Shown here: positions 17,115-55,591 of the stretch, in pieces | How the letters are laid out: each line of letters opens with the position of its first letter | Numbering within the stretch: the first letter of the stretch is position 1 | IMG/VR virus record: IMGVR_UViG_3300020187_003193 | DNA from: a virus | Reading direction: 5' to 3' (one strand) | Length of the DNA: 64,000 bases | Position numbers and translations under genes: made by a program | Notes under the pieces: generated by a model | Told to the model about the DNA's origin: nothing | Database searches by the model: none | What the model saw: the letters and a program-made list of their open reading frames with translations, nothing else

Positions 17115-17133
17115 TATAGTATAAACCCTTGAA

Positions 17134-17460: not shown

Positions 17461-17489
17461 TAGGAGGGGCGAAAGCCCCTTCATATATT
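17461..17489 (+). promoter_or_regulatory. sigma70-like promoter containing a GAAA-tetraloop hairpin
   Basis: TAGGAG-N17-TATATT; AGGGGC-GAAA-GCCCCT at 17465-17480. Confidence 0.55.
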
Positions 17490-17514
17490 TAGGGGTTCAA
17501 TTAAAATAAAAGTT

Positions 17515-17763: not shown

Positions 17764-17764
17764 T

Positions 17765-18187: not shown

Positions 18188-18190
18188 GTT

Positions 18191-18721: not shown

Positions 18722-18728
18722 TATTTAT
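18721..18728 (+). promoter_or_regulatory. ATATTTAT putative late promoter
   Basis: Motif upstream of ATG 18748. Confidence 0.6.
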
Positions 18729-18747
18729 ATACAAAACACATTATATC

Positions 18748-19119
18748 ATGCAAGATAATTTTAGCATTAGAGACTGGAAACACGAAACAGTATACAAAGA
18801 AGAATTTGAAGGTTCTGGTAAAGTAGCTGAAGTAGAAGACTTTGAAGCAGACGCTGAGGATATCGAATTTGAAATCCCGGGCGACGAAAACGCTAAACCA
18901 GTAGTTGATAAAGACTTAAACAAGTCATTAAGTAAGCAAGATAAAATCATCAAACAGTGGCAAGATATCAATGCACAAATGCAAAGAAATCTTAAAAACT
19001 TTAAAGAAGCTGGTGATGAAGGTGCTAAAGATATGGCTAAAATAGCTCTAAAAGACTTAACCCCAGCATATAGAGCAGCTAAGGATGCTTACGAAAAACT
19101 AAAAGGTGTTAAACTTTAA
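18748..19119 (+). CDS. Acidic hypothetical protein (possible head-internal protein)
   Basis: Leader MQDNFSIRDWKHE resembles that of ORF 12901. Confidence 0.6.
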   Translation: MQDNFSIRDWKHETVYKEEFEGSGKVAEVEDFEADAEDIEFEIPGDENAKPVVDKDLNKSLSKQDKIIKQWQDINAQMQRNLKNFKEAGDEGAKDMAKIALKDLTPAYRAAKDAYEKLKGVKL

Positions 19120-35944: not shown

Positions 35945-35973
35945 TTTGAATATTAAATAAAGGTTATTATATT
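35945..35973 (+). promoter_or_regulatory. sigma70-like promoter for the glycosyltransferase
   Basis: TTTGAA-N17-TATATT; spacer shares TATTAAATAAAGGTT with the primase promoter. Confidence 0.55.
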
Positions 35974-35980
35974 AAATGTT

Positions 35981-38305
35981 ATGAAAATACTCGCTTCAAC
36001 TAGTTTTATAGGCACTACAGGATATGCAAACCATGCACAATCCTTTTTTACTGCTTTAGATAAACTCACTCCTGTTAAAGTACGAAATTTTACTATAGGT
36101 AAAGGCTGGGAAGGTAACTCTAAAAATCAACACGATAAAGAGCCATACTTAACCCCCCAAATGAAGAGAATGCTTCATTCACAAACCCTATGGAACTCAG
36201 ATGGTACTAAAAGTGACCACCCTATATATTCACATGAAGAAGGATTTGTTCCTGATGTAAACATTGTTTTAAACGAACATAACCACCATTATTTCCATGA
36301 TTCATATGAGGGATATAAAATAGCATATAACGTATGGGAAACTACACGTTATTCAGAAGAATATTTTAATGCTATAAAAAACTTTGATGAATTATGGGTA
36401 CCTACCCAATGGCAAAAAGACATATCTGTAAAACAAGGATATCCTGAAGATAAAGTGTTTGTTATACCCGAAGGAGTAGACGGTGATACTTTCAAACCTA
36501 CATCTAAACCTAAAAAACGAGATAAATTTCAATTTATCGTAGTAGGAAGATGGGATTATAGAAAAGGTGTAAAAGAAAGTATAGAGGCATTCCTCAAAGC
36601 ATTCCCAGATAATCAAAATGTTGAACTTTTAATTAATGTTGAAAATCCCTTCCCGGTAGATGGCATGTCATCAACAGAAGAACGTTTAAAACATTACGGA
36701 TTAGAGGATGATAGAATAAAAATATTAAAGTTTTTAGATAGAAAAGAATATATTAAATTAATTCAAAACGCTGATGTATTTTTATCATGCGCTCGTGCTG
36801 AGGGATGGAATTTACCATTAATTGAAGCTTTAGCTTGTGGTATCCCTTCAATATATACAAAATGTAGCGGACAACTTGAATTCACAGAGGGTAAAGGGCT
36901 AGGTATAGGAATACTAGGAGAAGAACCTGCAACTAACAATAAAAATCTTACCTACGATCAAAACTTACCCGGTAATTTTTATACTCCCGATTTAGAGGAT
37001 TTAGTTGTTAAAATAAAGGACGCATATGATAACTGGGACGTATGGAAATTATGGCATCTTAAGAGGTCTAAAGAAATACGTAAAAAGTTTTCATGGGAAA
37101 ATCAAGCTAAATTAGCACATGACAGATTAAAAATTGTTAAAACTCTTACCCCTAAAACCTCCATAAATAAAGTGCCTAGGTTAGAAGTAAACTTTGTAGA
37201 TGGTCCTTATGCATGTTTAAGAGATTCTAATAAAGAATATATAGTAGACTTTATTAATCGAGATATAAATAAAGTTGAATTTACTACCCCTCTAAAAAAT
37301 AATCACTGGAGTAAAACTTATTATAAGTATTTTATTAATTGGGAACTAAGACTTAAAAACCAAAAAGGTGAAATATTAAATACCCACAAATATAATGCAT
37401 CCAATAAACGTGTTTATATATCATTAGGGTCAAAATCATTAGGAGATACTTTAGCATGGTTCCCTTATGTAGAAGAATTTAGAAAAAAACATAATTGTCA
37501 CGTAGTTGTATCTACTTTTTGGAATCATTTCTTTGAAGGACATTATCCTGAGTTAGAATTTGTTAAACCTGGAGAGGCTGTAAATAATTTATATGCTATG
37601 TATGAATTAGGTTGGTACTATAAAGATAATAGTAATGAACTAGACCTCTATAAACAACCCGTAGATCCTAAATCTATTACACTTCAACAAACTGCAACTA
37701 ACATATTAGGTTTAGAATATAAAGAAATTATACCTAAAATAAATGTACCTGTTAAAGAGAGACCATTTAAAGAAAAATATATTGTATTCTCACCACATGC
37801 CTCAGCATCTGCCAAATACTGGCACCATGAAACGGGGTGGCAAGATGTAATTAACTACGTTACAAACGTATTAGGTTTCAAAATGGTAATGATATCTAAA
37901 GAACCATACGATAGCGAATGGGAAACAAATAAACTGCCAAGAAATAAAAAATTCGAAAATATAATAGATGCTACAGGTGACCATCCAATAGAAGATATTA
38001 TGAATATGATATACTACTCAGAAATGTACATTGGTGTTTCAAGTGGTTTAGCATGGTTAACATGGGCAATCCAAAAACCAGTAGTGATGGTATCAGGATT
38101 CAGTTCATCTTGGACCGAGTTCACTACAAAAATACAGCGAATTATAAACAAAGATGTATGTAATTCTTGCTTTAATAACTCAAAATTAGACGCAGGTGAT
38201 TGGGATTGGTGCCCAAATCATAAAGATACCCCAAGACAGTTTGAATGCACTAAAAAAATATCCCCAGAACAAGTAATAAAAGGCATTACTCGTAGTCTTG
38301 TGTAA
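35981..38305 (+). CDS. Bifunctional glycosyltransferase: GT4 + Aah/TibC-like O-heptosyltransferase
   Basis: GT4: VGRWDYRKG and EGWNLPLIE (Ex7E). C-terminal half: SLGDTLAW...YPELEF, GVSSGL.WL, and CNSC...WCP...FEC four-Cys site. Confidence 0.85.
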   Translation: MKILASTSFIGTTGYANHAQSFFTALDKLTPVKVRNFTIGKGWEGNSKNQHDKEPYLTPQMKRMLHSQTLWNSDGTKSDHPIYSHEEGFVPDVNIVLNEHNHHYFHDSYEGYKIAYNVWETTRYSEEYFNAIKNFDELWVPTQWQKDISVKQGYPEDKVFVIPEGVDGDTFKPTSKPKKRDKFQFIVVGRWDYRKGVKESIEAFLKAFPDNQNVELLINVENPFPVDGMSSTEERLKHYGLEDDRIKILKFLDRKEYIKLIQNADVFLSCARAEGWNLPLIEALACGIPSIYTKCSGQLEFTEGKGLGIGILGEEPATNNKNLTYDQNLPGNFYTPDLEDLVVKIKDAYDNWDVWKLWHLKRSKEIRKKFSWENQAKLAHDRLKIVKTLTPKTSINKVPRLEVNFVDGPYACLRDSNKEYIVDFINRDINKVEFTTPLKNNHWSKTYYKYFINWELRLKNQKGEILNTHKYNASNKRVYISLGSKSLGDTLAWFPYVEEFRKKHNCHVVVSTFWNHFFEGHYPELEFVKPGEAVNNLYAMYELGWYYKDNSNELDLYKQPVDPKSITLQQTATNILGLEYKEIIPKINVPVKERPFKEKYIVFSPHASASAKYWHHETGWQDVINYVTNVLGFKMVMISKEPYDSEWETNKLPRNKKFENIIDATGDHPIEDIMNMIYYSEMYIGVSSGLAWLTWAIQKPVVMVSGFSSSWTEFTTKIQRIINKDVCNSCFNNSKLDAGDWDWCPNHKDTPRQFECTKKISPEQVIKGITRSLV

Positions 38306-38312
38306 TATTTAT
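38305..38312 (+). promoter_or_regulatory. ATATTTAT putative late promoter
   Basis: Motif upstream of the first fibre gene. Confidence 0.6.
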
Positions 38313-38348
38313 TAGGGAATAATCCTTGGTAAATAGAAATCACAATAA

Positions 38349-41300
38349 ATGGCTACAATAAGTACATCGGGTATACAGAGTGGAAGTGTAATTAAAGCTG
38401 AACACGTTCTTGACATAATAGATGCCTTAAATGGTAATACTGCAACAGGTATAGTAATATCAGGATCAGTAAGGATTACAGGAAGTTTTAATTTTGACAC
38501 ATCATCTTTACCTTATACACCTTTTGATGAGGCCCCCTATATTTTAGCATATAATACAGGAAGTGGAGAAGTATCTTTCTCTGAAAGAGGTGCTACTTCA
38601 GGAACTTCAGGAACATCTGGTACATCTGGTACAGATGGTACATCGGGTACATCAGGTTCATCTGGAACTTCGGGCACTTCAGGTAGTTCAGGTTCTTCAG
38701 GGTCATCAGGAAGCTCAGGCACATCCGGTAGCTCAGGCTCAAGTGGTACATCCGGCTCATCTGGAACTTCAGGTACTGATGGTACATCTGGTACATCAGG
38801 TTCATCTGGAACCTCAGGTACATCAGGTAGTTCAGGTACAGATGGTACATCAGGCACATCAGGATCTTCAGGTACAAGTGGTACATCTGGTACATCAGGT
38901 TCATCTGGAACTTCAGGCTCATCTGGCTCATCAGGTTCAAGTGGATCATCAGGCACATCTGGTTCTTCGGGTACTTCAGGTACTTCTGGTAGCTCTGGCT
39001 CATCAGGTTCATCTGGCTCTTCAGGAAGCTCAGGCACATCTGGCTCATCAGGTTCTTCAGGCACATCTGGTAGCTCAGGTTCATCAGGTTCAAGTGGATC
39101 ATCAGGAACATCTGGCTCTTCAGGTAGCTCAGGCACATCCGGTAGCTCAGGAACATCTGGTTCTTCAGGCACATCAGGTACTTCGGGTAGTGATGGAACA
39201 TCGGGATCATCAGGAAGTTCAGGAACATCAGGCTCATCAGGAACATCCGGTTCTTCAGGAAGCTCAGGCACATCCGGTTCATCTGGCTCTTCAGGAAGCT
39301 CAGGCACATCTGGCTCATCAGGTTCTTCAGGTACTTCTGGTTCAAGTGGAACTAGTGGAACAAGTGGTGCTGTATACTCTTCAACATCACCCTCAGAATT
39401 AACAATAGGAACTGGTACTCAAAACTTAACAGTTGGTACTGGTTTAACATATACAGCAGGACAAGGTGTTATTATCACCGAGGCTGCTGCCCCTACAACT
39501 AACTACATGGAAGGTAGAGTAACATCATATAATGGTGGTACCGGTGCCTTAGTAGTAGATGTATTTACCGCAGAGGGAAGTGGAACATTCTCAAGCTGGA
39601 ATGTAAACTTACAATCAGCTCCTGGTACATCCGGTACATCCGGTACATCAGGTGGTACACAGATAGCAAATAACACAGGTAGTTATATGTTAACTGCTCA
39701 AGGAACTGCTGAAGTACTAGCCCATGAAGAAATTCAATTTTCAAATACTTGGTTAACAGCTTCTAATGCTATTATTCCTGGAGATTTAATAGTAGAAGGT
39801 ACAGCCTCTGTTTCTTTCCTACAAAGTGTTACAGGTTCAGCCAAAATAATTGGAGACGCCTTTATTATCTTAAATAATAATACACCTGCGGAAAGATATG
39901 CAGGTATTGTAGTTCAAGATAGTGGATCTACTAATGATACAGCTTCATTACAATTTGATGGGCAAACAAATGACTGGTTCTACGAATACACAGATGATGG
40001 AGGAGCAACTGTAGATCATGGTGTAGTAATATTCGGAGAAGCTTACGATACTAAAGGTTCACCAATTTATCCAAGCAATAACACAATTCAAAAAGGTAAT
40101 GGTGAACATCATATATTAGATTCAAATATTACAGATGACGATAGTCATATAAAATTAGGAATAGATACAGTAGTTTCAAGCTCTTTAGATGTTACTGGAA
40201 GCTTACAATTAACTGGATCCTTAAATATAAGTGGCTTACAAGCCAACGCTTCTGAAGATACAATCTTAGTAATCAGCCCAGCGGGTGTAGTAGGAACAAA
40301 AGAAGGAGCAGCAAGTTCAGGTACTTCAGGTACAGATGGAACTTCAGGAACAAATGGTTCCGACGGAACAGGTGGTTCTTCAGGATCATCTGGTTCTTCA
40401 GGTTCATCAGGAACTAATGGAACATCTGGTTCATCCGGTTCATCTGGTACAAACGGTACAGATGGCACATCTGGCAGTTCAGGCTTTTCAGGTACATCCG
40501 GTTCATCAGGTACTTCAGGTACGGATGGTACTTCAGGTAGTTCAGGCACAAATGGAACATCAGGATCTTCAGGCTCATCAGGCTCATCAGGCTCATCAGG
40601 TAGCTCAGGTTCTTCAGGTACAAATGGTACAGATGGTACATCAGGTTCTTCAGGAAGCTCGGGAACATCAGGCTCCTCAGGTTCATCCGGAACAAACGGA
40701 ACAAATGGTACCTCAGGATCATCGGGTTCATCAGGTACTTCAGGTTCATCTGGTTCTTCAGGAACAAATGGAACAAATGGAACATCCGGTTCTTCAGGCA
40801 CATCTGGAACTTCAGGTTCATCAGGTTCATCAGGTACAAACGGAACAAGTGGAACATCAGGTTCATCTGGAACATCAGGTACATCAGGTTCATCTGGAAC
40901 TTCAGGTTCATCAGGTACATCTGGTATTGCCGGACCAACTGGCCCTACAGGACCAACAGGACCAACAGGTGCTACAGGACCTGCGGGAACGTCTGGTTCA
41001 TCCGGTACATCTGGCAGCTCAGGTACATCAGGATCATCAGGAACATCTGGTGCTACAGGACCAACAGGACCTACAGGACCAACAGGTGCAGGAGGAACAT
41101 CAGGTTCTTCAGGTACATCTGGAACAACAACAATTACAGGTAATGCAAATAATAGAGTATTAACTGCAACAGGTACCGCAACTATTAATGGTGAAGCTAA
41201 TTTAACCTTTGATGGTAGTACTTTAACAGTAGCAGGCTCAATAAATGAAACTTCTTCAAGAAGATTTAAGAAAAATATTACTCCTTTAGAAAACCAACTA

Positions 41301-41528
41301 GAAAAATTATTACAATTAAACCCTGTAGAATATGATTGGGTTAAAGATGGTAAGCATGATATTGGTTTGATAGCTGAAGAAGTAAACGAATTAATCCCAG
41401 AAGTGGTTCACGTAATAGAAGATGAAGTACAAGGTATACATTACTCTAGATTAACCGCAGTTTTAATTAAAGCAGTACAAGAATTAAAACAAGAAGTAGA
41501 ACTTCTTAAAGCAAAATTAAATGGCTAA
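38349..41528 (+). CDS. Tail fibre with Gly-Ser/Thr collagen-like blocks and S74 intramolecular chaperone
   Basis: Two long (G-T/S-S)n blocks, GPT triplets, C-terminal SSRRFKKNI...LNPVEYDW. Confidence 0.85.
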   Translation: MATISTSGIQSGSVIKAEHVLDIIDALNGNTATGIVISGSVRITGSFNFDTSSLPYTPFDEAPYILAYNTGSGEVSFSERGATSGTSGTSGTSGTDGTSGTSGSSGTSGTSGSSGSSGSSGSSGTSGSSGSSGTSGSSGTSGTDGTSGTSGSSGTSGTSGSSGTDGTSGTSGSSGTSGTSGTSGSSGTSGSSGSSGSSGSSGTSGSSGTSGTSGSSGSSGSSGSSGSSGTSGSSGSSGTSGSSGSSGSSGSSGTSGSSGSSGTSGSSGTSGSSGTSGTSGSDGTSGSSGSSGTSGSSGTSGSSGSSGTSGSSGSSGSSGTSGSSGSSGTSGSSGTSGTSGAVYSSTSPSELTIGTGTQNLTVGTGLTYTAGQGVIITEAAAPTTNYMEGRVTSYNGGTGALVVDVFTAEGSGTFSSWNVNLQSAPGTSGTSGTSGGTQIANNTGSYMLTAQGTAEVLAHEEIQFSNTWLTASNAIIPGDLIVEGTASVSFLQSVTGSAKIIGDAFIILNNNTPAERYAGIVVQDSGSTNDTASLQFDGQTNDWFYEYTDDGGATVDHGVVIFGEAYDTKGSPIYPSNNTIQKGNGEHHILDSNITDDDSHIKLGIDTVVSSSLDVTGSLQLTGSLNISGLQANASEDTILVISPAGVVGTKEGAASSGTSGTDGTSGTNGSDGTGGSSGSSGSSGSSGTNGTSGSSGSSGTNGTDGTSGSSGFSGTSGSSGTSGTDGTSGSSGTNGTSGSSGSSGSSGSSGSSGSSGTNGTDGTSGSSGSSGTSGSSGSSGTNGTNGTSGSSGSSGTSGSSGSSGTNGTNGTSGSSGTSGTSGSSGSSGTNGTSGTSGSSGTSGTSGSSGTSGSSGTSGIAGPTGPTGPTGPTGATGPAGTSGSSGTSGSSGTSGSSGTSGATGPTGPTGPTGAGGTSGSSGTSGTTTITGNANNRVLTATGTATINGEANLTFDGSTLTVAGSINETSSRRFKKNITPLENQLEKLLQLNPVEYDWVKDGKHDIGLIAEEVNELIPEVVHVIEDEVQGIHYSRLTAVLIKAVQELKQEVELLKAKLNG
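38601..39368 (+). repeat. (Gly-Thr/Ser-Ser)n block, about 85 triplets
   Basis: Gly at every third residue without interruption. Confidence 0.95.
40320..41123 (+). repeat. (Gly-X-Y)n Ser/Thr block, about 89 triplets
   Basis: [12 protein letters not shown], then GPT triplets. Confidence 0.95.
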
Positions 41529-41898
41529 GAATGTTAGAATAGTACCTGCTTCTGGTTCTATCTACTTCACAGGTGATGGATATGATATAACAGGATCAGT
41601 AGTACTTAAAACTTTAGGGAATACAGAAGACCTTGCTTTCGCTGTTGCCGATAGTAATGAACCTATCCTTCTCATATCAAAAGAATCTGGTAGAGTAGCA
41701 GTAGGAATATCATCAGCATCAGCTAAATTAGAAGTATTTTCAAACACAGATGAAGATCTTTTATTAATTAGAAACTCCAATGGAGGTATAAAAGTAAACA
41801 ATGAAGGAGTTTTAGTATTATCTAACTATGACGGCGAACCTACTCCCGTAAGTGGGGGGATATATTACAGTAATTCCCAATTCTTTGTTGGGCCCTAA
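41521..41898 (+). CDS. Small fibre-associated protein
   Basis: 125 aa; PASGSIYF; VGI...SAKLEV beta-repeat. Confidence 0.65.
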   Translation: MAKNVRIVPASGSIYFTGDGYDITGSVVLKTLGNTEDLAFAVADSNEPILLISKESGRVAVGISSASAKLEVFSNTDEDLLLIRNSNGGIKVNNEGVLVLSNYDGEPTPVSGGIYYSNSQFFVGP

Positions 41899-41906
41899 AT
41901 ATTTAT
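41899..41906 (+). promoter_or_regulatory. ATATTTAT putative late promoter
   Basis: Motif upstream of the 2056-aa gene. Confidence 0.6.
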
Positions 41907-41953
41907 TAAAGAACAATCACAAATTCAACCCACAACTAAAAAACACATAACAA

Positions 41954-44900
41954 ATGGCAGAATGGAAAAAGGTCGTCGTCTCCGGTAGCGACGTATCACA
42001 ATTAACAAATGATGCGAATTACTTAGTAGATGGCCAAGAGGGAGCAGTCCTTTCCGGTTCATTTACAGGTTCATTCTCAGGAGACGGATCTGGACTTACT
42101 GGTATTGCCTCTACTCTAAGCTTAGCAGGAGATGCAGGTACTGACTCTATCAATCTCAAAACCGAAACATTAACTATTGACGGTACTAAGGGTATTTCTA
42201 CTTCCATTGATGCCGCTAGTAATACAATTACTGTTAGTGGTAATGCTTTAAGCGCATCTGTTTCTACTGAAACTAACGCAAATAAAGTTGCTGCTGCTAC
42301 AAATGCAAGTAATATTACTGCATTAAGTGGTTCAGCTTCAGCTGATAGAACAGCAATTAAAGGTGCTGCTACTACATTAGCAGGAAGAGTTACTACAGCT
42401 GAAGGAGAAATTGATACTCTTCAAAGTGATGCTACTGCATTAACTACAAGAGTAACTACAGCTGAAGGGGATATTTCCGATATCGAAACTGCAGCTACAA
42501 CTTTAGCAGGTAGAGTAACTACGGCTGAAGGAGACATTTCTGATATCGAAACCGCCGCTACAACATTAGCAGGGAGAGTTTCTGATAACGAAACTGCTAT
42601 TGCAACTAATGCAACTGATATTGCTACTGAAAAAGGTAGAGTAGATGCAATTTTAGACGCTTCATCAGCTGATAAAGATTCATTTGCAGAGATTGTAACT
42701 TTAATCAACTCAGTAGATACAGCTAACGACGACGCACTTGCAGGATACGTATTATCTAATAATACTAGATCAACTACAATTGAAAGTGCCTCTGCTGCAT
42801 TATCAGGTAGAGTAACTTCAAACGAAGATGCAATTGCTGCATTAGACGATACTTACGCTACAGAAGCTGAAGTTGCTTCTGCTGTTCTTGCTTTAAGCGG
42901 ATCAGCTGCAGCTAAACAAGCTGCTAACACGGCTGCTATCGTTGCAAATGATGGTGAAATTGCTACGTTACAATCAGATGCTACTGCTTTAACAGCTAGA
43001 GTAGGTGCTAACGAAGATGCCATTGCAGCCTTAGACGATACTTACGCTACAGATGCAGAAATTGCAAGTGCTGTAAGCGCATTAAGTGGTTCAGCTTCTG
43101 CAGATAGAACAATAATTAAAAATAGTGTTAGTTCTGAAGCTACTACAAGAGCAGCTGCAGATACAACATTACAGGGAAATATTGACAGTGAAGCTTCTAC
43201 AAGAGCAGCAGCTGATACAACCTTACAAAGTAATATAGATTCTGAAGCAGCTACTAGATTAGCTAATGATAATACATTACAATCTAACATTAATGCACTA
43301 AGCAGCTCAGCTTCTACAGACAGAAATGTAATAAAATCTGAATTAGACGGTAAAATTACTACTGAAAAAGGTAGAATTGACGCTATTTTAAGTGCAGCCG
43401 ATGCTGATTACGATACTTTTGCTGAAATTGTAGGATTAATAAACTCAGTAGATACTGAAAATGATACAGCGTTTGGTACATATGTAACAAATAATAATGC
43501 TAGAGTAGCAGCTGTAGAAGGAGAAGTAGATGCTTTACAACTAGATTCAGCTTCATTTTCTGTAAGAGTAAAAGCAAACGAAGATGCAATTTCTGACTTA
43601 GATAATGTTTACGCTACAGATGCACAAGTAACTAGTGCAGTTTCTGCTTTAAGTAGTTCAGCTGCTGCTAAACAAGCAATTAATGCTGCTTCAATTACTT
43701 CTTTAAGCGGTTCAGCTTCTACAGACAGAAATGTAATTAAATCTGCTCTACAAGCTAATATCGATGCTGAAGAAACAGCAAGAATTGCAGCCGACGGAGT
43801 ATTACAAGGTAATATAGATTCAGAAGCCTCTACAAGATCAGCTGCTGATGCAACTTTACAAAGTAATATTACAGCATTAAGCGGATCAGCTCACGATAAG
43901 AGAGAGCTAATCAAAACTGATGTTGCTACTAACGTAAGTGCTATTTCTGGATTAGATACTAGATTAACTACTGCCGAAGGAGATATTACAGATATCGAAA
44001 CAGCAGCTTCTACATTAGCTGGAAGAGTTACTACTAACGAAGGAAATATTGCAACTAATGCTTCTGGCATAGCTGCTAACGTAAGTAGTATTTCTGCATT
44101 AAGCAGTTCAGCTTCAACAGATAGAAATGCTATAAAATCCGAATTAGAAGGAGATATTTCTTCATTAAGCGGATCAGTTTCTACAGATATTCAAGCAGAA
44201 AAAGGTAGAATTGATGCAATACTTTTAGCTTCAGATGCTGATAAGGATTCATTTGCAGAAATCGTTACCTTAATCAACTCTGTTGATACAGAAAATGATT
44301 CAGCATTTGCAGGATACGTTTCTACAAATGATGCAAGATCTACTACAATTGAAAGTGCTTCTGCTGCTTTAGCAACAAGAGTAACTTCAAATGAAGATGC
44401 AATTGCAGATTTAGATAACGTTTACGCTACAGATGCTCAAGTAACTTCTGCAGTAAATACCATTAGTGGATCAGCTTCAGCAGACAGAACAGTTATCAAA
44501 ACAGCTGCCACTGCTTTAACAAGCAGAGTTTCTACAAACGAAAGTGATATTACTGCAATCGAAAATGCAGCTACTGCTTTAAATAGTAGAGTAGGTGCTA
44601 ACGAAGATGCAATTGCTGCCTTAGATGATACTTATGCTACAGATGCTCAAGTTACTAGTGCCGTAAGTGCCCTTAGTGGATCAGCTTCTACAGACAGAAA
44701 TGCTATTAAATCTGAATTAGCTTCTGATATTTCAGACGAAGCTACTGCAAGATCTTCTGCTGATACAACATTACAAGGAAATATAGATTCAGAAGCTACT
44801 ACAAGAGCAGCTGCTGATACAACATTACAAGGAAATATTGACAGTGAAGCAACAGCTAGAGCTTCAGCTGATAGTACATTACAATCTAATATTAATAGCT

Positions 44901-47900: not shown

Positions 47901-48124
47901 TTATCGACGAAGGTTCAGGAACTGGTCACGCTTATATATTCGACCCAGTATCTGACAGATTTGGATTTAACGCAGCTGTTGCCCACAACGCTGGAACTGC
48001 TACTCCATCAGCATTTGCTGCTGCAGTAATAGACGAAGCCGCAGGACACAGTGATTCAGCTGAATACCAAAAAGCTGGTAACATTAGAGTTGCTGCAAAC
48101 GGTGATATTTTTATCTACTCGTAA
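41954..48124 (+). CDS. Very long alpha-helical (coiled-coil) fibre protein
   Basis: 2056 aa, Ala/Thr/Ser-rich heptads, seven repeated knot motifs, globular beta-rich C-terminus. Confidence 0.85.
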   Translation: MAEWKKVVVSGSDVSQLTNDANYLVDGQEGAVLSGSFTGSFSGDGSGLTGIASTLSLAGDAGTDSINLKTETLTIDGTKGISTSIDAASNTITVSGNALSASVSTETNANKVAAATNASNITALSGSASADRTAIKGAATTLAGRVTTAEGEIDTLQSDATALTTRVTTAEGDISDIETAATTLAGRVTTAEGDISDIETAATTLAGRVSDNETAIATNATDIATEKGRVDAILDASSADKDSFAEIVTLINSVDTANDDALAGYVLSNNTRSTTIESASAALSGRVTSNEDAIAALDDTYATEAEVASAVLALSGSAAAKQAANTAAIVANDGEIATLQSDATALTARVGANEDAIAALDDTYATDAEIASAVSALSGSASADRTIIKNSVSSEATTRAAADTTLQGNIDSEASTRAAADTTLQSNIDSEAATRLANDNTLQSNINALSSSASTDRNVIKSELDGKITTEKGRIDAILSAADADYDTFAEIVGLINSVDTENDTAFGTYVTNNNARVAAVEGEVDALQLDSASFSVRVKANEDAISDLDNVYATDAQVTSAVSALSSSAAAKQAINAASITSLSGSASTDRNVIKSALQANIDAEETARIAADGVLQGNIDSEASTRSAADATLQSNITALSGSAHDKRELIKTDVATNVSAISGLDTRLTTAEGDITDIETAASTLAGRVTTNEGNIATNASGIAANVSSISALSSSASTDRNAIKSELEGDISSLSGSVSTDIQAEKGRIDAILLASDADKDSFAEIVTLINSVDTENDSAFAGYVSTNDARSTTIESASAALATRVTSNEDAIADLDNVYATDAQVTSAVNTISGSASADRTVIKTAATALTSRVSTNESDITAIENAATALNSRVGANEDAIAALDDTYATDAQVTSAVSALSGSASTDRNAIKSELASDISDEATARSSADTTLQGNIDSEATTRAAADTTLQGNIDSEATARASADSTLQSNINSLSGSASADRTAIKASVATEKGRIDAILSAADADKDSFAEIVTLINSVDTENDTAFAGYVSTNDARVLAVEGDITDIETAATALTSRVGANEDAIAALDDTYATEAEVATAVSDHSGSASTARELIKTDLNSLSGSASTDRNAIKSELLSDISDEETRALAAEGVLQDNIDAEETARTTADSTLQSNITALSGSAHVKREAIKADVATNASNIATNTADIATEKGRIDAILDASEADKDSFAEIVTLINSVDTENDTAFGTYVTNNNSRSTTIESASAALAGRVTTAEGEIDTLQSDASTLSGRVDTAESDINTIESASAALSGRVTANESALASLDDTYATETEVSDAVSALSSSAAAKQAINAAAITSLSGSASTDRNAIKSELDGKITTEKGRIDAILSAADADKDSFAEIVTLINSVDTENDTAFAGYVSTNDARVLAVEGEVDALQLDSASFSTRVLANEEAIADLDNVYATDAQVTSAVNALSGSASADRTVIKASIVSETSVRSSADTTLQSNIDSEATTRAAADTTLQGNIDAEETARIAADGTLQSNITALSGSAHVKREAIKADVATNTSAIATEKGRIDAILDASDADKDSFAEIVTLINSVDTENDTAFGSYVTSNNAKVTKLEATASEHAALLADGVVDITSAQTITGDKTFTGEVVIGGNAFPTDSGLYGQTFTTDGNGQLTWTETPGSGSTKKLNQTEAAVTWSFLHDLDEVYPMVQVYDSNGDMVIPERIESIDQNNVKIYFSEPTTGVAAAMVGQMGISASNATRATSASVADRATTLSADATASFALLAGSARNADSASVAAIATELSADATASYALLASTVHDGNISTAKIADDAVTADKLADTDVTAGSYGSSTAIPTFTVDAQGRLTAAGEASISTDLNIAGDSGTDTVGSSDTLTFSGTANEIVTAVTDNTVTVSLPDDVTIGNDLTVTTDASIGGNLTVTGNFSVLGDTTTVNTSNLLVEDKFILLNSGSADPDTGGIIIDEGSGTGHAYIFDPVSDRFGFNAAVAHNAGTATPSAFAAAVIDEAAGHSDSAEYQKAGNIRVAANGDIFIYS
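42623..46760 (+). repeat. Seven dispersed copies of EKGRIDAIL..xDADKDSFAEIVTLINSVDTEND.AF
   Basis: Copies start near 42623, 43358, 44195, 44948, 45557, 46067 and 46643. Confidence 0.9.
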
Positions 48125-48141
48125 CAACTAAATAACAATTT

Positions 48142-48174
48142 AAGAGCCCCTTTGCTAACGCAGAGGGGTTTCTT
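48142..48174 (+). terminator. Intrinsic terminator
   Basis: AAGAGCCCCTTTGC-TAAC-GCAGAGGGGTTTCTT. Confidence 0.8.
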
Positions 48175-48182
48175 ATATTTAT
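48175..48182 (+). promoter_or_regulatory. ATATTTAT putative late promoter
   Basis: Motif upstream of ATG 48203. Confidence 0.6.
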
Positions 48183-48202
48183 GATAAACATACTATAACG
48201 TT

Positions 48203-48412
48203 ATGGGATTATTAGACAAAATTACAAGAAAAGAACAAGCAGCTCCTTCAACACCTAAGATATCTAAAGAAGACTTATCTTTAAATGCTGAAGAAACAAA
48301 AATTTTATTACACTTAATTAAAAATAGTAATTTTAAAGGAGATAGTGTAGAATTAGTATACGAACTCACTAAAAAACTCCAGTCAGTACTTACGGTTCTG
48401 TCTCAAAATTAA
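48203..48412 (+). CDS. Small helical protein (fibre assembly helper candidate)
   Basis: 69 aa between fibre genes, with its own promoter. Confidence 0.65.
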   Translation: MGLLDKITRKEQAAPSTPKISKEDLSLNAEETKILLHLIKNSNFKGDSVELVYELTKKLQSVLTVLSQN

Positions 48413-48419
48413 TATTTAT
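48412..48419 (+). promoter_or_regulatory. ATATTTAT putative late promoter
   Basis: Motif 70 nt upstream of ATG 48489. Confidence 0.65.
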
Positions 48420-48426
48420 ACTGGAG

Positions 48427-48479
48427 TATTATCGGCCCCTAGGGGAAGTGGACATCCTATGATGTAACCAACCATAATA
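48427..48479 (+). promoter_or_regulatory. Candidate three-way-junction RNA in the fibre gene 5' leader
   Basis: P1 TATTAT(C)GG/CCATAATA, P2 CCC-CTAG-GGG, P3 TGG-ACATC-CTAT-GATGT(AA)CCA. Confidence 0.55.
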
Positions 48480-48488
48480 AAATAGTAT

Positions 48489-51400
48489 ATGCCAAATTGG
48501 AAAAAATTAATCGTCAGTGGTTCTGACGCAAACCTATCTTCATTACACGTAGCAGGAGCATTAACCGCCTCATCTGCTTACTTAGAATCTGCCTCAATTG
48601 GTCATTTACAGACCATATACGAGACAGCTTCCGTCATTTATAGCTCAGGTTCAACCAAATTTGGAGATACACCAGATGATACTCATGAAGTAACTGGTTC
48701 TTTACTAGTTAAAGGAAACACAAATGTAGAAGGTCACATTATACCTTCCAATGACAATACCTACGATTTAGGTTCACCTACTAAACAATTTAGAGATTTA
48801 TTTTTATCCTCTGCCTCTTTATATATTGATGGAACAAAAGTTCTATCTTCTAATGCAGATACACTTACTTTTACAACAGATGTAGGACAGAGTATAAAAT
48901 TACTAGAGACAGGAGGAGACGATATAACTCTTCAAACTGATACGGGTAATATAGAATTAAAAGGAACTGTAGAAATACAATCCGGTAAAAAAATCACAGA
49001 TAGTTCAGGTAATATAGTATTATTTGGAAATTCTATAGGAATAACAGGTAGTATAGAAACTACGGGAACAATAGATGGTATAGACCTGCAAGCATATTCA
49101 GGATCAATTAATACTAGAATCATATCATTAGAATCGGGTTCAGCAGATGGTACATCAGGAAGCTCAGGATCTTCAGGATCATCGGGTTCATCAGGAACAT
49201 CAGGTTCATCTGGATCTTCAGGTAGCTCAGGTTCTTCAGGTACAAATGGTACAGACGGAACTTCAGGATCATCTGGCTCATCAGGAACATCAGGCTCATC
49301 AGGACCTTCAGGTTCATCTGGTACATCTGGTAGCTCGGGTACTTCAGGTTCAAGTGGTTCAAGTGGTACATCCGGTAGCTCTGGTACTTCAGGTACAAGT
49401 GGTTCATCAGGAACATCAGGAAATTCAGGCTCAAGCGGTTCTTCAGGTTCATCAGGATCTTCAGGTTCATCTGGTACAGATGGTACATCAGGTTCAAGCG
49501 GATCTTCAGGTTCATCAGGAAGTTCAGGCTCAAGTGGCTCTTCAGGTTCATCTGGTACATCCGGAAGCTCGGGCTCATCAGGTACAAATGGTACAGATGG
49601 AACTTCAGGCTCATCAGGTTCATCAGGTACTTCTGGAGAACAGGGAATACAGGGAGAAACAGGCCCTGCTGGTGACAATGGTACATCAGGAAGTTCAGGA
49701 TCTTCAGGATCAGATGGAACTTCAGGTTCATCAGGTACTTCAGGTGTAGATGGAGCAGACGGAACATCCGGTAGCTCAGGTTCATCTGGAATAGATGGAA
49801 CAAGTGGTGTTGATGGAACTTCAGGTTCTTCAGGTACATCAGGAGAAGCAGGCTCAAGTGGCTCATCAGGTTCATCAGGTTCTTCAGGAACATCTGGCGA
49901 AACCGGCCCAACAGGCCCAGCAGGTAATGACGGAACATCAGGAAGCTCAGGTTCTTCAGGTGCAATTGGCCCCGTAGGTCCCTTAGGACCAACAGGACCA
50001 ACAGGAGCACAAGGTCCAACAGGACCACAAGGAGTAGCAGGTACAGGTATCACAATGCAAGGTAGCGTTGCGACAACAGGAGATTTACCTAGCTCAAACA
50101 ATACACAAGGTGATGCTTATATAGTCCAAACAGACGATTCACTTCATATATGGGATGGAACAGTATGGGTAAGTGGAGGTTCAATTCAAGGACCAACTGG
50201 TCCAACAGGAGCTACAGGACCAACTGGACCAACTGGACCACAAGGTTTAACAGGATCTGATGGAGCAACTGGCCCAACAGGACCAACTGGAGCATCAGGT
50301 ACATCAGGAAGTTCAGGTTCATCCGGAGCAACCGGAGCTACAGGAGCTACTGGCCCACAAGGTGCTACAGGACCTGCAGGTACTTCTGGTTCTTCAGGAA
50401 CATCAGGAGCTACAGGAGCTACTGGCCCACAGGGTGCTACAGGACCACAAGGTGCAACTGGACCAACAGGCGCAACAGGAGCAACAGGCGCTTCAGGTAC
50501 ATCAGGAAGTTCAGGAACATCAGGAGCAACAGGCGCAACAGGTGCAACTGGAGCATCAGGTACATCAGGCTCTTCAGGCACATCGGGTTCATCAGGAACA
50601 TCAGGAAGTTCAGGAACATCAGGCGCAACAGGAGCCACAGGTGCTACTGGTCCACAAGGTGCAACAGGTCCCGCAGGAACATCAGGTTCAAGTGGTACAT
50701 CTGGAGCAACAGGAGCCACAGGTGCAACTGGAGCTACTGGAGCATCAGGTACATCGGGCTCATCTGGAACTTCAGGTTCATCTGGAACATCAGGTGTAAA
50801 TGGAGGAACTGGACCAACAGGACCTACTGGAGCAGCAGGAACATCAGGTTCATCAGGAACATCAGGTGCTACAGGACCTACAGGACCAACAGGCGCAAAA
50901 GGTAATACTGGAAATACTGGACCTACGGGCCCAACAGGAGCAACAGGTGCTTCAGGAACATCAGGTTCTTCTGGTACATCAGGTACAGTTCCCTTTGCTA
51001 CTGCAGCGGTAACAAGTACAACTACTACAGCTTTTATTTCTGAGTTGTATAGTGATGGATACTTAGCTACAAACTCACTTAGAGCAGGAAAAACATCTTG
51101 GTCATATGCAGGAAATGGTGATTTATCAGATACAGGATATGGTACCTTCGAATTAGCAGGCTGTTCTATATTAGGATGGGATGCTGGAGGGCTTGAAACT
51201 GTAATGGTTATTAGACCCACTACTGGGGGTGGAGGAGGACAAATCCTAGTTTATAATAACCAGTCCACATCATATTCACCAGGCTGGAGACAAATCCTAA
51301 CATCAACTACAGACGGATATCTACCTAGGTTGTATGATACAAACAACACAAACTATTATTTAGATCCTGCAAGTACATCTGTTTTTAATACAATATCTGC

Positions 51401-52337
51401 TGGGGGTAATATTACTGCTACTGAATTTTATGCCAATAACTGGTTTAGAAATAATAATACCAATGAAGGCATGTACAACCAAGCAACGGGGCAACATTGG
51501 TATTCTGATGATGATGATTGGTGGAACATAGGAGGAGGAACTACTGCTAATGGTATTAGGTTTAGAGATGAGCATGGTGGTACTATAAGGGGAGCAGTTT
51601 ATGCTGATAATACAAATAGTGTTGGTTTATTAGATTCTGATCTAAACTGGGCTATAAAACATGTTCGGGATTCAAGAACTGAATTTTACATAAACAATGT
51701 TGAAGTAGCAGAAATAAACGCAGACTATTTACAACATAATAGCGATGTTAGGTCTCCTTTATTTTATATATCAGATAGTACAGCTAATAGATTTACGGCA
51801 GGGGCACTTTATTTAAGCTCCACCTCTCCTACTATGTACTTTAGAGACACCAATGGAAATTCTGCAATGCTCCATAATAACTCTAATTTATTTTATATAT
51901 TAAGGGGTAATACTAATTCTGAAACATGGACGCAAGTTAATGGACAGTGGCCTGTTTATTGGGATTTATCAAATAATAATGCTACTTTTGGAGGGAATTT
52001 AACTTTAGCAGGTACTATAACTGAAAATTCAGATATAAAGTTAAAAGAAAATATAGAAACTATAGATGGTGCACTGGATAAAGTAAACCAACTTAGAGGA
52101 GTATATTATAATAAAATAGTAGACGAAGATAAAAAAAGAAGAATAGGTGTAATAGCACAAGAAATTCAAGAAGTTCTTCCTGAAGTTGTGGATCTACATC
52201 AAGATGCAGAAGATACTGAAGGTACGCTAACTGTATCATATAGTAATATTACAGCTTTGCTTATTGAAGGTATGAAAGAGTTATCAAAACAAAACAAAGA
52301 TTTGCTCGCTAGAATAGAAAAATTAGAAAAACAATAA
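48489..52337 (+). CDS. Tail fibre with collagen-like blocks, receptor-binding-like region and S74 chaperone
   Basis: [14 protein letters not shown]-terminus shared with ORF 41954; two G-X-Y blocks; C-terminal SDIKLKENI...LRGVYY. Confidence 0.85.
49149..50042 (+). repeat. (Gly-X-Y)n Ser/Thr block, about 99 triplets
   Basis: Read from the translation. Confidence 0.9.
50190..50984 (+). repeat. (Gly-X-Y)n GAT/GPT/GTS block, about 88 triplets
   Basis: Read from the translation. Confidence 0.9.
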
Positions 52338-52340
52338 ATT

Positions 52341-52667
52341 ATGAATATTACTTATACCTGGTCAATTACAGGACTAAAAAGATCCCCATCATTAAACGGA
52401 TTAACTAATGTTGTTACTGGGATCAAATTTAACTACACAGGAGTAGATTCAGAATCTGGAGAAAGTTATACCTTTCCAGGAGCAGTTCCAGTAGGAGAAC
52501 CTTCCCCTGATAACTTTACATCCTTTGAGAGTTTAACTGAAGCTGATATTATTAGTTGGGCACAAGCAAATCATCCTACAGACCATATGAATAAAAGGGT
52601 TGAGGAAGCTATTGCTAGGAAAATTTCTCCTATTGAAGAAGATATTCCTCTCCCATGGTCAAGTTAG
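52341..52667 (+). CDS. Fibre-associated small protein (chaperone-like)
   Basis: ITYTWSI...VV...Y.G.D...F.SLTE..II.W...LPW pattern, downstream of a fibre gene. Confidence 0.65.
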   Translation: MNITYTWSITGLKRSPSLNGLTNVVTGIKFNYTGVDSESGESYTFPGAVPVGEPSPDNFTSFESLTEADIISWAQANHPTDHMNKRVEEAIARKISPIEEDIPLPWSS

Positions 52668-52713
52668 TTATAAAAACTTAAACAAAACTAATAAAGTTTA
52701 TTCAAAATAATTA

Positions 52714-52721
52714 ATATTTAT
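52714..52721 (+). promoter_or_regulatory. ATATTTAT putative late promoter
   Basis: Motif upstream of ATG 52763. Confidence 0.6.
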
Positions 52722-52762
52722 CATAGAATAAAGCTCATTAACCCAACTCAAAACAACAAACA

Positions 52763-55591
52763 ATGCAAATACACGGCGCAGAAATAATTGGAGAATTATC
52801 CCTAGATCCCAATGCAATAGCAGATCTAACAGGTTCATTTTCAGGTTCTCATTCGGGATCATTCACAGGTTCTTTCCTAGGTGACGGATCAAATTTAACA
52901 GGTGTTACCGCTGAATGGGATGGTTCTCATACAGGGAATGGTTCAATTTCAGGAGACCTTACTGTAGGTAATTTAATTACTGATGGTAATGTAGATGGTG
53001 TAGATGTTTCTGCATTAGATACCAGAGTAACAGATGTAGAAGGTGATGTAGCAGCAATTTTACTATCCGCAGATGCTGATAAAGATTCATTTGCTGAAAT
53101 CGTAACCTTAATCAACTCTGTTGATACAACTAACGACAGTGCATTTGCGTCTCACGCAACTGATACAGACAACCCACACTCTGTTACAAAATCACAAGTT
53201 GGGTTAGGAAATGCTGATAACACATCTGATGCCAATAAACCAATATCTACTGCACAACAAGCAGCATTAGACTTAAAAGCTGATATCGCTACTCTAGATA
53301 GCACATACGCAACCGATGCTCAAGTAACAAATGCAGTTTCTGCTTTAAGTGGATCTGCTTCTGCTGATAGAACATCAATTAAAGCCACACTTTCAGCTTT
53401 AGATAGTACATATGCTACAGATGCTCAAGTAACAAGCGCAGTTTCTGCTTTAAGTAGTTCAGCAGCAGCTAAATCAGCTATAAATGCTGCAAACATTGCT
53501 ACTAACACTTCAGCAATTGCAGCTTTAGATAGTACATATGCTACAGATGCTCAAGTTACAAGTGCTGTAAACGTACTTAGTGGTTCAGCTGCTGCAAAAC
53601 AAGCAATTAACGCGGCTGCAATCGCAAGCATAAATGCAAAAGATCCTGTATTAACAGTATCTGGAGACGCAAGTGGTACAGCTACTTTTACCAATTTAGG
53701 TAATGCTACATTAAGTTTAACTATTGCAGATGATTCTCACAACCACGTTATTTCTAACGTAGATGGATTACAAGCAGCCCTTGATTCAAAATCTAGTGGT
53801 GCTGATTTAACAACATTAACCGGAAGAGTAAGTACTGCCGAAGGTGAAATCGATGCTTTACAATTAGATTCAGCTTCATTCTCAACAAGAGTATTAGCAA
53901 ACGAAAGTAAATTATCAGGAATTGAAGCAGGCGCCACAGGTGATCAAACAGCAGCAGAAATTTTAACTGCTATTAAAACAGTTGATGGAGCAGGAAGTGG
54001 ATTAGATGCTGATTTATTAGACGGACAGTCATCAGCATACTATGCTACTGCAACATCAGTATCTACAAACACATCAGCAATTGCTACTATTAACGCTAAA
54101 GATCCTGTATTAACAGTATCTGGAGATGCAAGTGGAACAGCAACATTCACAAACTTAGGTAACGCTTCAATGACGTTAACCATCGCTGATGATTCACACA
54201 ACCATACTATTGCTAACGTTGATGGTTTACAAACAGCTCTTAATGCAAAAGCTCCATTAGCTTCACCAGCATTAACTGGCAACCCAACTGCCCCTACACA
54301 AACTGGGACAGATGAATCTACTAAGATTGCTACTACAGCCTTTGTACAAGGTAGAATTGATGCTATTATAGGAACTGCAGGTTCAACTTTAGATACATTA
54401 GGAGAATTATCCGCTTCAATGGCAGCTGACGAATCAGGATTAGCGGCATTAACAACAGAAGTAGGAACAAAATTAGCAAAAGCTTCTAACCTATCAGATT
54501 TAACAAACGCTGGAGCTGCAAGAACAAATATTGGATTAGGATCAGGTAATAACGTAGCCTTTACAGGAGTTACTACCGATACTCTTAGTGCAAATGGTTT
54601 ATTAGAACAAGCCTCAGAATCTACCACATTAGTAATTAGCCCAACAGGGGTTGTAGGATTTAGAGAAAATGCTGCTTCTTCTGGAACATCAGGTTCTTCA
54701 GGAACTTCAGGTACTTCAGGTTCATCGGGAACCTCAGGAACATCAGGTTCATCAGGAACTTCAGGAGCAACAGGAGCAACTGGACCTACAGGACCAACAG
54801 GTGCAACAGGAGCCTCAGGTTCATCGGGAACATCAGGAACTTCAGGTAGTTCAGGAACTTCAGGTTCATCCGGAACTTCAGGAGCAACAGGAGCAACTGG
54901 GCCTACAGGACCAACGGGTGCAACAGGAGCTAAAGGTAACACAGGTAACACAGGAGCCGCAGGAACATCAGGTAGTTCGGGAACATCAGGTAGTTCAGGA
55001 ACCTCCGGTGTAAAAGGAAATACAGGAGCAACAGGACCAACAGGAGCATCAGGCTCATCCGGAACTTCAGGTTCATCCGGAACCTCAGGTGTAAACGGTG
55101 GAACAGGTCCAACAGGACCAACTGGACCAACAGGACCTGCAGGACCAAGTACGGTAACTACTATTTCATTAGCAGACCGGATTCAACATACAGGCGATAC
55201 TGATACTTATATTCAATTCCATGCAGCAAACCAATGGAGAGTTGTAACAGGTGGTGCTGAAAGATTAGAAGTAAATAACAGTGCAGTAACAGTAACAGGT
55301 ACATTTACAGAAAACTCCGATAGAAGATTAAAAGAAAACATAGTTCAAATTGGAGGTGCTCTTAGTTTAACAGAACAATTAAGAGGTGTATACTATAACA
55401 GAAGCGATAGAGATGACAAATCTAAAATGGTTGGATTTATAGCTCAAGAAGTACAAGAAGTAATACCTGAAGTTGTAACTACCAACGAAGAAACAGGAAT
55501 TTTATCTGTTTCATATACCCACCTTATAGCAGTTTTAGTAGAATCAATTAAGGAATTATCTGCTAGAGTAAAAGAATTAGAAAGTAAATAA
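52763..55591 (+). CDS. Tail fibre with coiled-coil modules, HxH repeats, collagen-like block and S74 chaperone
   Basis: DDSHNH repeat twice, LDTLGEL knot, SPALTGNPTAPT motif, C-terminal SDRRLKENI. Confidence 0.85.
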   Translation: MQIHGAEIIGELSLDPNAIADLTGSFSGSHSGSFTGSFLGDGSNLTGVTAEWDGSHTGNGSISGDLTVGNLITDGNVDGVDVSALDTRVTDVEGDVAAILLSADADKDSFAEIVTLINSVDTTNDSAFASHATDTDNPHSVTKSQVGLGNADNTSDANKPISTAQQAALDLKADIATLDSTYATDAQVTNAVSALSGSASADRTSIKATLSALDSTYATDAQVTSAVSALSSSAAAKSAINAANIATNTSAIAALDSTYATDAQVTSAVNVLSGSAAAKQAINAAAIASINAKDPVLTVSGDASGTATFTNLGNATLSLTIADDSHNHVISNVDGLQAALDSKSSGADLTTLTGRVSTAEGEIDALQLDSASFSTRVLANESKLSGIEAGATGDQTAAEILTAIKTVDGAGSGLDADLLDGQSSAYYATATSVSTNTSAIATINAKDPVLTVSGDASGTATFTNLGNASMTLTIADDSHNHTIANVDGLQTALNAKAPLASPALTGNPTAPTQTGTDESTKIATTAFVQGRIDAIIGTAGSTLDTLGELSASMAADESGLAALTTEVGTKLAKASNLSDLTNAGAARTNIGLGSGNNVAFTGVTTDTLSANGLLEQASESTTLVISPTGVVGFRENAASSGTSGSSGTSGTSGSSGTSGTSGSSGTSGATGATGPTGPTGATGASGSSGTSGTSGSSGTSGSSGTSGATGATGPTGPTGATGAKGNTGNTGAAGTSGSSGTSGSSGTSGVKGNTGATGPTGASGSSGTSGSSGTSGVNGGTGPTGPTGPTGPAGPSTVTTISLADRIQHTGDTDTYIQFHAANQWRVVTGGAERLEVNNSAVTVTGTFTENSDRRLKENIVQIGGALSLTEQLRGVYYNRSDRDDKSKMVGFIAQEVQEVIPEVVTTNEETGILSVSYTHLIAVLVESIKELSARVKELESK
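54683..55150 (+). repeat. (Gly-X-Y)n Ser/Thr block, about 52 triplets
   Basis: Read from the translation. Confidence 0.9.

Follow-up and report, generated by a model that had tools for sequence, protein, structure and literature searches.

What does a tailed phage gain from a protein glycosyltransferase gene placed directly before its fibre genes, and what does the enzyme modify? This question is raised by a 64,000-nt stretch of viral DNA (IMG/VR record IMGVR_UViG_3300020187_003193; hereafter, the window), which is part of a ~183-kb contig of an uncultured marine T4-like myovirus. An intact open reading frame (ORF) at 35981-38305 on the + strand encodes a 774-residue protein, in which a GT4 domain is fused to a BAHT (TibC/Aah-type) domain, and the first fibre gene begins 43 nt past it. 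We consider it rather probable, judging from gene content and sequence, that Ser-rich Gly-X-Y tracts in the fibres of the phage are O-glycosylated by the phage itself. The 774-residue protein would then be a bifunctional protein O-glycosyltransferase, and its likeliest acceptors would be the serines of Gly-Ser/Thr-Ser tracts.

The N-terminal GT4 domain (35981..37150, + strand; residues 1-390) has the GT-B fold and is of the retaining type. It was matched above the cut-off by the Pfam families Glycos_transf_1, Glyco_trans_1_4 and GT4-conflict, with the Glycos_transf_1 match covering residues 175-302 (E value 2e-16; 60.3 bits vs. a cut-off of 26.4). The EX7E motif of this half (E274...E282) is invariant in 18 homologues. 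In the AlphaFold model of the enzyme (mean pLDDT of 87), two domains are separated by a disordered linker at residues 391-396. When the modelled GT4 half was compared with known structures using Foldseek, the nearest fold was that of the chlorovirus NY2A glycosyltransferase (3oy2), followed by MshA, PglA, PimA, GtfA and SdgB.

The C-terminal BAHT domain (37178..38305, + strand; residues 400-774) consists of a beta-barrel, a GT-B core and a four-Cys iron-finger. The NCBIfam model TIGR04414 (hepto_Aah_TibC) matched residues 406-770 with 299.6 bits against a cut-off of 200 and was covered from position 17 to 372 of 374, while models of lipopolysaccharide (LPS) heptosyltransferases reached only 19-30 bits on the same protein. 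At the sequence level, this half matched the TibC chains in PDB 4RAP/4RB4 with an E value of 1e-51. Moreover, its predicted model was superimposed on these chains by Foldseek over ~380 residues, including the beta-barrel, with TM scores of 0.81-0.83 (E value 5e-30). A preliminary description of this DNA, made from the letters alone, had proposed a GT4 and TibC-type fusion for this ORF, and the profile match, the PDB match and a TM score of 0.83 all bear that proposal out. The alignments and the model thus solidly place the C-terminal half as a genuine BAHT-family domain.

The active site was assessed using the residue roles reported for TibC, in which Asp-110 is the catalytic base, Thr-226, Lys-230 and Trp-305 contact the phosphate or sugar, and four cysteines bind iron (PMC4358343). 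On alignment, Asp-110 corresponded to D489, Lys-230 to K612 and Trp-305 to W692, and these residues were invariant or nearly so in 18 phage homologues (Lys in 17 of 18). The iron-binding Cys-339/342/358/370 corresponded to C727, C730, C744 and C756, which were invariant in the 18 phage homologues. Thr-226 is conservatively replaced by S608, and the position associated with stereo-selectivity, which is Pro-300 of TibC and Ser-294 of Aah, is Ser in the phage enzyme. The motifs singled out earlier (SLGDTLAW, GVSSGL.WL, CNSC, WCP and FEC) are all present and align with TibC Asp-110, Trp-305 and Cys-339/342/358/370. To judge from these conserved motifs, both halves of the enzyme look catalytically competent.

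Downstream of the enzyme gene lie four large fibre genes, all on the + strand, of which three are collagen-like and one is a coiled-coil protein without Gly-X-Y; the three fibre genes named in the preliminary description were therefore found as collagen-like genes within a set of four. Fibre 1 (38349..41528; 1059 residues) matches Pfam Collagen (E value 2.5e-70) and Peptidase_S74 (3.7e-15). It has 176 triplets (76 GSS and 65 GTS) in two tracts, at 38601-39374 and 40320-41129, and its S74 chaperone lies at 41253-41411. Fibre 3 (48489..52337; 1282 residues; Collagen, 8.6e-79; Peptidase_S74, 1.7e-16) has tracts at 49149-50048, 50190-50801 and 50811-50990 with 188 triplets (57 GSS and 41 GTS, and also GAT and GPT), and an S74 chaperone at 52029-52190. 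In fibre 4 (52763..55591; 942 residues; Collagen, 4.6e-21; Peptidase_S74, 2.9e-14; also PTR), 51 triplets were found at 54683-55096 and 55106-55150, followed by an S74 chaperone at 55316-55477. The translation of fibre 2 (41954..48124; 2056 residues) is a repetitive coiled coil with no collagen runs, and this protein is not an obvious acceptor of the collagen-tract kind.

Triplets were counted in runs of at least five, which gave seven runs; one has 5 triplets and the other six have 20-100 each. In total, the three collagen-like fibres hold 415 Gly-X-Y triplets, of which 379 contain Ser or Thr in at least one of the X and Y positions and 275 have Ser at Y. The roughly 400 Gly-Ser/Thr-Ser triplets claimed earlier agree with this total, but only about two thirds (264) are strictly G-[S/T]-S. 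The three proteins combine long Gly-X-Y runs with a C-terminal Peptidase_S74 intramolecular chaperone, as is characteristic of collagen-like fibres, and their tracts are predicted to form a triple helix.

The composition of these tracts is unusual. Prokaryotic and viral collagen-like proteins are stabilised by proline-rich X positions and by Lys-Gly-Glu/Asp salt bridges (PMC11923368). In the collagen-like tracts of the window, only 48 Pro were counted, and Lys and Glu were almost absent; thus, the tracts are without both of these stabilisers. A third stabiliser, O-glycosylated Thr, appears in studies cited in PMC11923368, according to which (Gly-Pro-Thr)10 folds only if it is galactosylated and glycosylated Thr can stand in for hydroxyproline as a stabiliser of the triple helix. 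The same source cites O-glycosylation of the collagen-like regions of BclA and Thr-galactosylated collagen in the cuticle of a vent worm.

Fibre glycosylation may be pictured as follows. The BAHT domain would act in the cytoplasm, O-glycosylating Ser of fibre chains that have yet to trimerise or are in the course of it, and the GT4 domain would add a second sugar or serve other sites; the preliminary description had put this as possible priming by the GT9-like domain and extension by GT4. The glycan would replace the missing proline or hydroxyproline and the missing Lys-Glu/Asp salt bridges, stabilising and hydrating the triple helix, and it might also shield the fibre or make it sticky. TibC modifies Ser, not Thr, and accepts peptides, and BAHT genes usually precede the gene of their substrate (PMC4358343). 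The phage enzyme gene likewise directly precedes a Ser-rich repeat gene, which is the arrangement of bacterial BAHT genes and their substrates. A stronger form of this proposal is possible but rather doubtful: Ser O-glycosylation by a BAHT-type enzyme would be an obligatory stabiliser of a proline-free, charge-free Gly-Ser/Thr-Ser triple helix, forming a hitherto undescribed two-part 'glyco-collagen' system present in hundreds of aquatic phages, in their fibres, and in diverse bacteria, and the fibres would stay unfolded without the enzyme.

The co-occurrence of the enzyme with Ser-rich fibres was evaluated among phages, anchored on the neck/adaptor gene at 33429-34577, for which 29 related IMG/VR loci were available. 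All loci with sufficient flank and an adaptor identity of at least 75% had both the enzyme and GSS/GTS collagen, whereas all loci with an adaptor identity of 53-68% were without the enzyme and without GSS/GTS collagen. The same was observed in complete genomes. The close relative G001 (166 kb), which served as a whole-genome proxy for the window phage, has both TIGR04414 and Pfam Collagen, whereas the more distant relatives G002 (168 kb) and G003 (162 kb) have neither TIGR04414 nor PF01391. By capsid protein, the nearest cultured relative is Flavobacterium phage immuto (59.5% identity), followed by Microcystis phage Mel-JY01 (50.7%). Phage immuto has the same gene order as the window, without the enzyme and without collagen. 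Wherever the sequence of a close relative continues past the enzyme gene, 279-301 nt separate that gene from the start of the first Gly-X-Y run, and this spacing is kept even where a collagen fibre gene replaces the 290-residue gene upstream of the enzyme.

The pairing extends to distant phages; the contexts of distant protein matches were read from loci in IMG/VR and GTDB. A megablast search of the enzyme gene against cultured phages gave no match, and tblastn found the BAHT part only in Mel-JY01 and three huge uncultured phages; a profile scan detected a relative of the enzyme in more than 580 viral contigs. Among 96 loci with a BAHT domain, 50 had Gly-X-Y runs of at least 8 triplets and 43 had at least 10 G-[ST]-[ST] triplets. 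Distant carriers, including Mel-JY01, L008, L045, L046, L061, L075, L092 and a 735-kb phage, differ in gene order or domain fusions and are alike in GSS/GTS composition, with, for example, 979 triplets (589 GSS and 288 GTS) in L046. In the Mel-JY01 record (L001), a long collagen-like frame of 199 triplets (77 GTS and 57 GSS) occupies 2-3052 on the + strand and runs off the start of the record. In the deposited annotation, this frame is overlain by two hypothetical genes on the minus strand (1-651 and 739-2298), and the 1226-residue enzyme is annotated only as 'methyltransferase FkbM'.

The reverse direction was also tested. When viral contigs were picked solely by a (G[ST]S)6 DNA pattern, a TIGR04414 gene was found in 13 of 47, compared with 0 of 46 control contigs picked by a (Gly-Pro-X)7 pattern (Fisher exact test, p = 9e-5). 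In the (G[ST]S)6 set, all three contigs that were at least 90% complete and 4 of the 5 that were at least 80% complete had the gene, while none of the nine complete Gly-Pro controls did. The enzymes on the (G[ST]S)6 contigs were standalone, GT4-fused or larger forms. Similar to the phages, 30 of 79 bacterial or archaeal loci with the nearest BAHT relatives (34-46% identity) had a Gly-X-Y run, nearly always of GSS, GTS or GTT triplets and in most of the 30 within ~2 kb of the BAHT gene. Such loci occur in Methylobacter luteus, in Ca. Methylomicrobium oryzae and on a complete Arenicellales chromosome; some of the metagenome-assembled bacterial contigs in this count may be phage-derived. These loci give independent support to the view that this branch of BAHT enzymes works with G-[ST]-[ST] repeats. 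The association anticipated in the preliminary description was thus recovered in both directions among phages and again in bacteria, and enzyme and repeat type are found together much more often than expected.

In a tree of 84 BAHT domains, two clades were resolved. Clade A, which contains the window phage, Mel-JY01, L008 and others, comprises 20 loci with GSS-type collagen fibres and 1 without. Clade B is different, and it supplies several of the points that weigh against fibre glycosylation as a general account. Among clade-B loci with adequate flanks, 16 have GSS-type collagen and 17 have none within 10 kb. The clade-B enzyme often lies between the head/neck genes and the sheath gene together with further sugar enzymes, and a few clade-B carriers have Gly-Pro-Ile/Gln collagen instead of the GSS type. 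Further points on this side are that the evidence is genomic only, with no glycan observed, that known BAHT acceptors are beta-helical autotransporter passengers and not triple helices, and that the reverse test compared contigs from phages of unlike type and genome size, uncorrected for phylogeny, which leaves room for shared ancestry or habitat to strengthen the apparent association. Absence of fibres within 10 kb on fragmentary contigs is, for its part, weak evidence of absence; in the clade-B genome G008, giant collagen genes lie ~30 kb from the enzyme on the contig.

The unlike contig sets and the roughly half of clade-B loci without fibres nearby would also suit a purely historical association, in which one broad aquatic phage group commonly carries both the enzyme and the Ser-rich fibres and the tracts are unmodified flexible spacers. 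This is considered quite improbable, as gain and loss of the two are concordant among close relatives, and the two are found together again whether the BAHT form is standalone, GT4-fused or multi-domain, and also in bacterial chromosomes.

The clade-B loci also bear on the choice of target within the virion. In those without fibres, the enzyme often has an extra PIG-L deacetylase domain and lies beside a PseB-like dehydratase, as in L062. There, 9986-16298 encodes a 1243-residue GT4-BAHT protein with a C-terminal PIG-L domain, followed by a PseB/CapD-like dehydratase and small ORFs; the sheath gene (16629-18965), which comes directly after this sugar-enzyme block with no fibre gene between, has a Ser/Thr-rich insertion. 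The combination of GT4 and PIG-L recalls the MshA-MshB and BshA-BshB pairs, in which transfer of N-acetylglucosamine is followed by deacetylation. In another locus (L079:11211-12050), a 279-residue fibre-like protein near the enzyme consists of SSSY(A/S)xSSS repeats, with 57% Ser in its densest 60 residues, and is a candidate non-collagen Ser-rich acceptor. A general score for Ser/Thr-rich windows of 60 residues was dropped because antisense frames of acidic scaffold genes gave false Ser-rich ORFs.

The enzyme might glycosylate other virion proteins, such as capsid, decoration, sheath or neck proteins, instead of or besides the fibres, as a general virion-glycosylation module of large aquatic myoviruses. 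In the window, genes for terminase, portal, gp23-type capsid protein, PhoH and neck/adaptor proteins are followed by the enzyme and fibre region and then by the tail sheath gene; the enzyme gene thus lies within the structural block, with the neck genes on its 5' side and the sheath gene further 3'. This position speaks for such a module, as do the L062-type arrangement of a PIG-L-bearing enzyme and dehydratase directly 5' of a sheath gene with a Ser/Thr-enriched insertion, and the glycosylation of capsid and tail-tube proteins by mycobacteriophages (Freeman et al. 2023, as cited in PMC12619734). However, in the clade of the window phage, the enzyme comes and goes together with the Ser-rich collagen genes against a constant set of capsid, neck and sheath genes, and the bacterial relatives adjoin short GSS/GTS tracts rather than phage structural genes. 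We therefore regard other virion proteins as an unlikely target. Overall, the pairing of enzyme and fibre is strong but not universal, and the fibre is not the only possible target across the family. A role in DNA modification was set aside, as the enzyme family is protein-specific and the gene lies in the structural block.

The 5' region of the enzyme gene differs from those of the fibre genes. The motif ATATTTAT occurs at 27 sites in the window, all on the + strand, where 10.6 would be expected on both strands. The sites lie mostly 10-55 nt before the start codons of structural genes, among which are the sheath gene and each of the four fibre genes; examples of sites are 6124, 12877, 18721, 23311, 25084, 31118, 33408, 38305, 41899, 48412, 52714, 55971, 57747 and 59382. 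By fibre, the sites are 38305 (fibre 1), 41899 (fibre 2), 48175 and 48412 (fibre 3) and 52714 (fibre 4). This motif is probably the late promoter core of the phage group, with a role comparable to that of T4 TATAAATA. It is absent from the 38-nt gap 5' of the enzyme gene. This gap holds instead a conserved element (35950-35965, + strand) that is distinct from the late-type motif and whose 3' part overlaps a weak sigma-70-like -10 hexamer. The exact 16-mer, ATATTAAATAAAGGTT, was found in the window only here and at 3703-3718, 5' of the primase gene. Among 12 relatives, most keep its 3' part, AAAGGTTATTATATTA, 5' of the enzyme gene, regardless of the preceding gene, and the 16-mer may represent a second promoter or translation-initiation class.

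The preliminary description had assigned the enzyme an early-type promoter. The gene does lack the late-type motif and has an element otherwise found only before the primase gene, but the sigma-70-like site itself (35946-35973) has 9 of 12 matches, which is not above chance, and no terminator was found between the enzyme gene and the upstream structural genes. Shuffled sequences yielded more sigma-70 sites than the region itself, so that the scan lends no support to an early promoter. The upstream sequences nevertheless support separate regulation of the enzyme gene.

An upstream element in common with the primase gene, in place of a late-type motif, would suit expression before the structural genes and could speak for a host target. 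The enzyme would then act on a surface adhesin, S-layer protein or LPS core and alter the cell surface, for example, to exclude other phages, and its fibre neighbourhood would be incidental. Known BAHTs do modify bacterial surface adhesins (PMC4358343). However, early expression fits equally an enzyme that is needed before its substrate. Moreover, the protein scores 300 bits on the protein-specific BAHT model vs. <30 on the LPS heptosyltransferase models, and the tight two-way association with Ser-rich Gly-X-Y genes in phages and bacteria would not be expected of a host-directed enzyme. A host target is thus held to be distinctly unlikely.

Two remaining points against fibre glycosylation in its TibC-like form concern the donor sugar. 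In TibC, Arg-286 contacts adenine N1 and is the basis of ADP-sugar specificity, and the R286A variant is inactive (PMC4358343). The corresponding residue in the phage enzyme is Ile-673, and it is R, I, V, T or A among the 18 phage homologues; the donor nucleotide-sugar is therefore not to be assumed. The second point is that gmhA was not found in the complete close relative G001, in Mel-JY01 or in the carrier contig G006. A 140-residue cytidylyltransferase-like protein (17765-18187) had rfaE_dom_II as its best specific match, at 53.6 bits vs. a cut-off of 181.5, and its gene is followed by one for an AAA_28 (NadR-type kinase) protein. The pair (17765-18721) could be a split NadR-like nicotinamide adenine dinucleotide salvage pair or a sugar-phosphate nucleotidyltransferase. 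This match is too far below the cut-off for the 17765 gene to be assigned to a phage heptose pathway, and its neighbour is a NadR-type kinase. The 'cytidylyltransferase like protein' of Mel-JY01 matched no NCBIfam family. Given the Ile at the Arg-286 position and no gmhA in these three genomes, the earlier suggestion of a heptose or ADP-heptose donor was not supported; from the sequences, ADP-heptose is possible as a donor but not indicated for the phage enzyme.

Among known systems, the closest are TibC-TibA and Aah-AIDA-I of E. coli (TIGR04414; PDB 4RAP/4RB4; PMC4358343), whose enzymes belong to the same family by profile, sequence and fold. In these systems as in the phage, the enzyme gene lies directly 5' of a long Ser-rich repeat gene, which encodes an extracellular fibre, and the expected acceptor is Ser. 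Unlike TibC and Aah, the phage enzyme is viral, is fused to a GT4 domain and has Arg-286 replaced by Ile. The genes that follow it encode collagen-like and coiled-coil fibres, with S74 ends on the collagen-like ones, rather than a beta-helical autotransporter, and no autotransporter domain was found in them. TibC is a ring-shaped dodecamer; the phage enzyme was modelled as a single chain, and its N-terminal GT4 fusion may or may not fit into such a ring.

Virion glycosylation in mycobacteriophages (Freeman et al. 2023), as described where it is cited in PMC12619734, is similar in that phage glycosyltransferases encoded in or beside structural genes act on the phage's own virion proteins in Ser/Thr-rich segments. 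There, capsid and tail-tube subunits are modified on their C-terminal tails, by non-BAHT enzymes and in actinobacterial hosts. Here, in contrast, the candidate target is hundreds of fibre triplets in an aquatic T4-like phage. BclA-type spore proteins of Bacillus and Clostridioides and the vent-worm cuticle collagen, in the accounts cited in PMC11923368 and given in PMC7157674, share hydroxyproline-poor Gly-X-Y sequences with O-glycans on Thr or Ser, the glycan lending stability to the triple helix and making up the outer surface. These systems differ in that they use unrelated glycosyltransferases (e.g., SgtA), are modified on Thr in Gly-Pro-Thr instead of on Ser in Gly-Ser/Thr-Ser and are not viral. 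The chlorovirus glycosyltransferases (PBCV-1/NY2A; PDB 3oy2) have the nearest fold to the GT4 half, but at 16% identity, in a eukaryotic virus and with no BAHT partner. For glycosylation of their capsid protein, chloroviruses rely on enzymes that they encode themselves.

To our knowledge, the only role described for BAHT enzymes is the modification of autotransporter adhesins in the cytoplasm of bacteria, and we know of phage virion glycosylation documented only for the capsids and tail tubes of actinobacteriophages. In the literature, no prior report was found of phages with BAHT-type (TibC/heptosyltransferase) enzymes or of glycosylation on the collagen-like fibres of phages, including for Mel-JY01. 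If fibre glycosylation is true, BAHT chemistry would extend to a new substrate fold, the triple helix, and the stability of collagen-like tracts without proline and salt bridges would be explained. Many abundant marine and freshwater phages would then meet hosts, grazers and particles with a glycan-coated fibre, with bearing on host recognition, adsorption to mucus or particles and virion stability. The enzyme and fibre pair is small and directly testable by co-expression.

Several smaller features were also recorded. Just after fibre 1, a conserved ORF of 125 residues (41521..41898, + strand) has no Pfam family; it is 56-61% identical among relatives, in most of which it stands just after a fibre gene, and possibly has a role in fibre assembly. 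Fibre 2 consists of shuffled coiled-coil modules, and its N-terminus is kept even in phage immuto. Between the genes of fibres 3 and 4 lies a DUF7936 protein of 108 residues (52341..52667, + strand; Pfam E value 2.6e-19). Among the replication genes of the window, a DUF6445 protein (5422-6096) and a zeta-toxin/AAA_33-type kinase (6147-6947) were found, and a gene for a SegE-like GIY-YIG homing endonuclease (3257-3709) lies just 5' of the primase gene.

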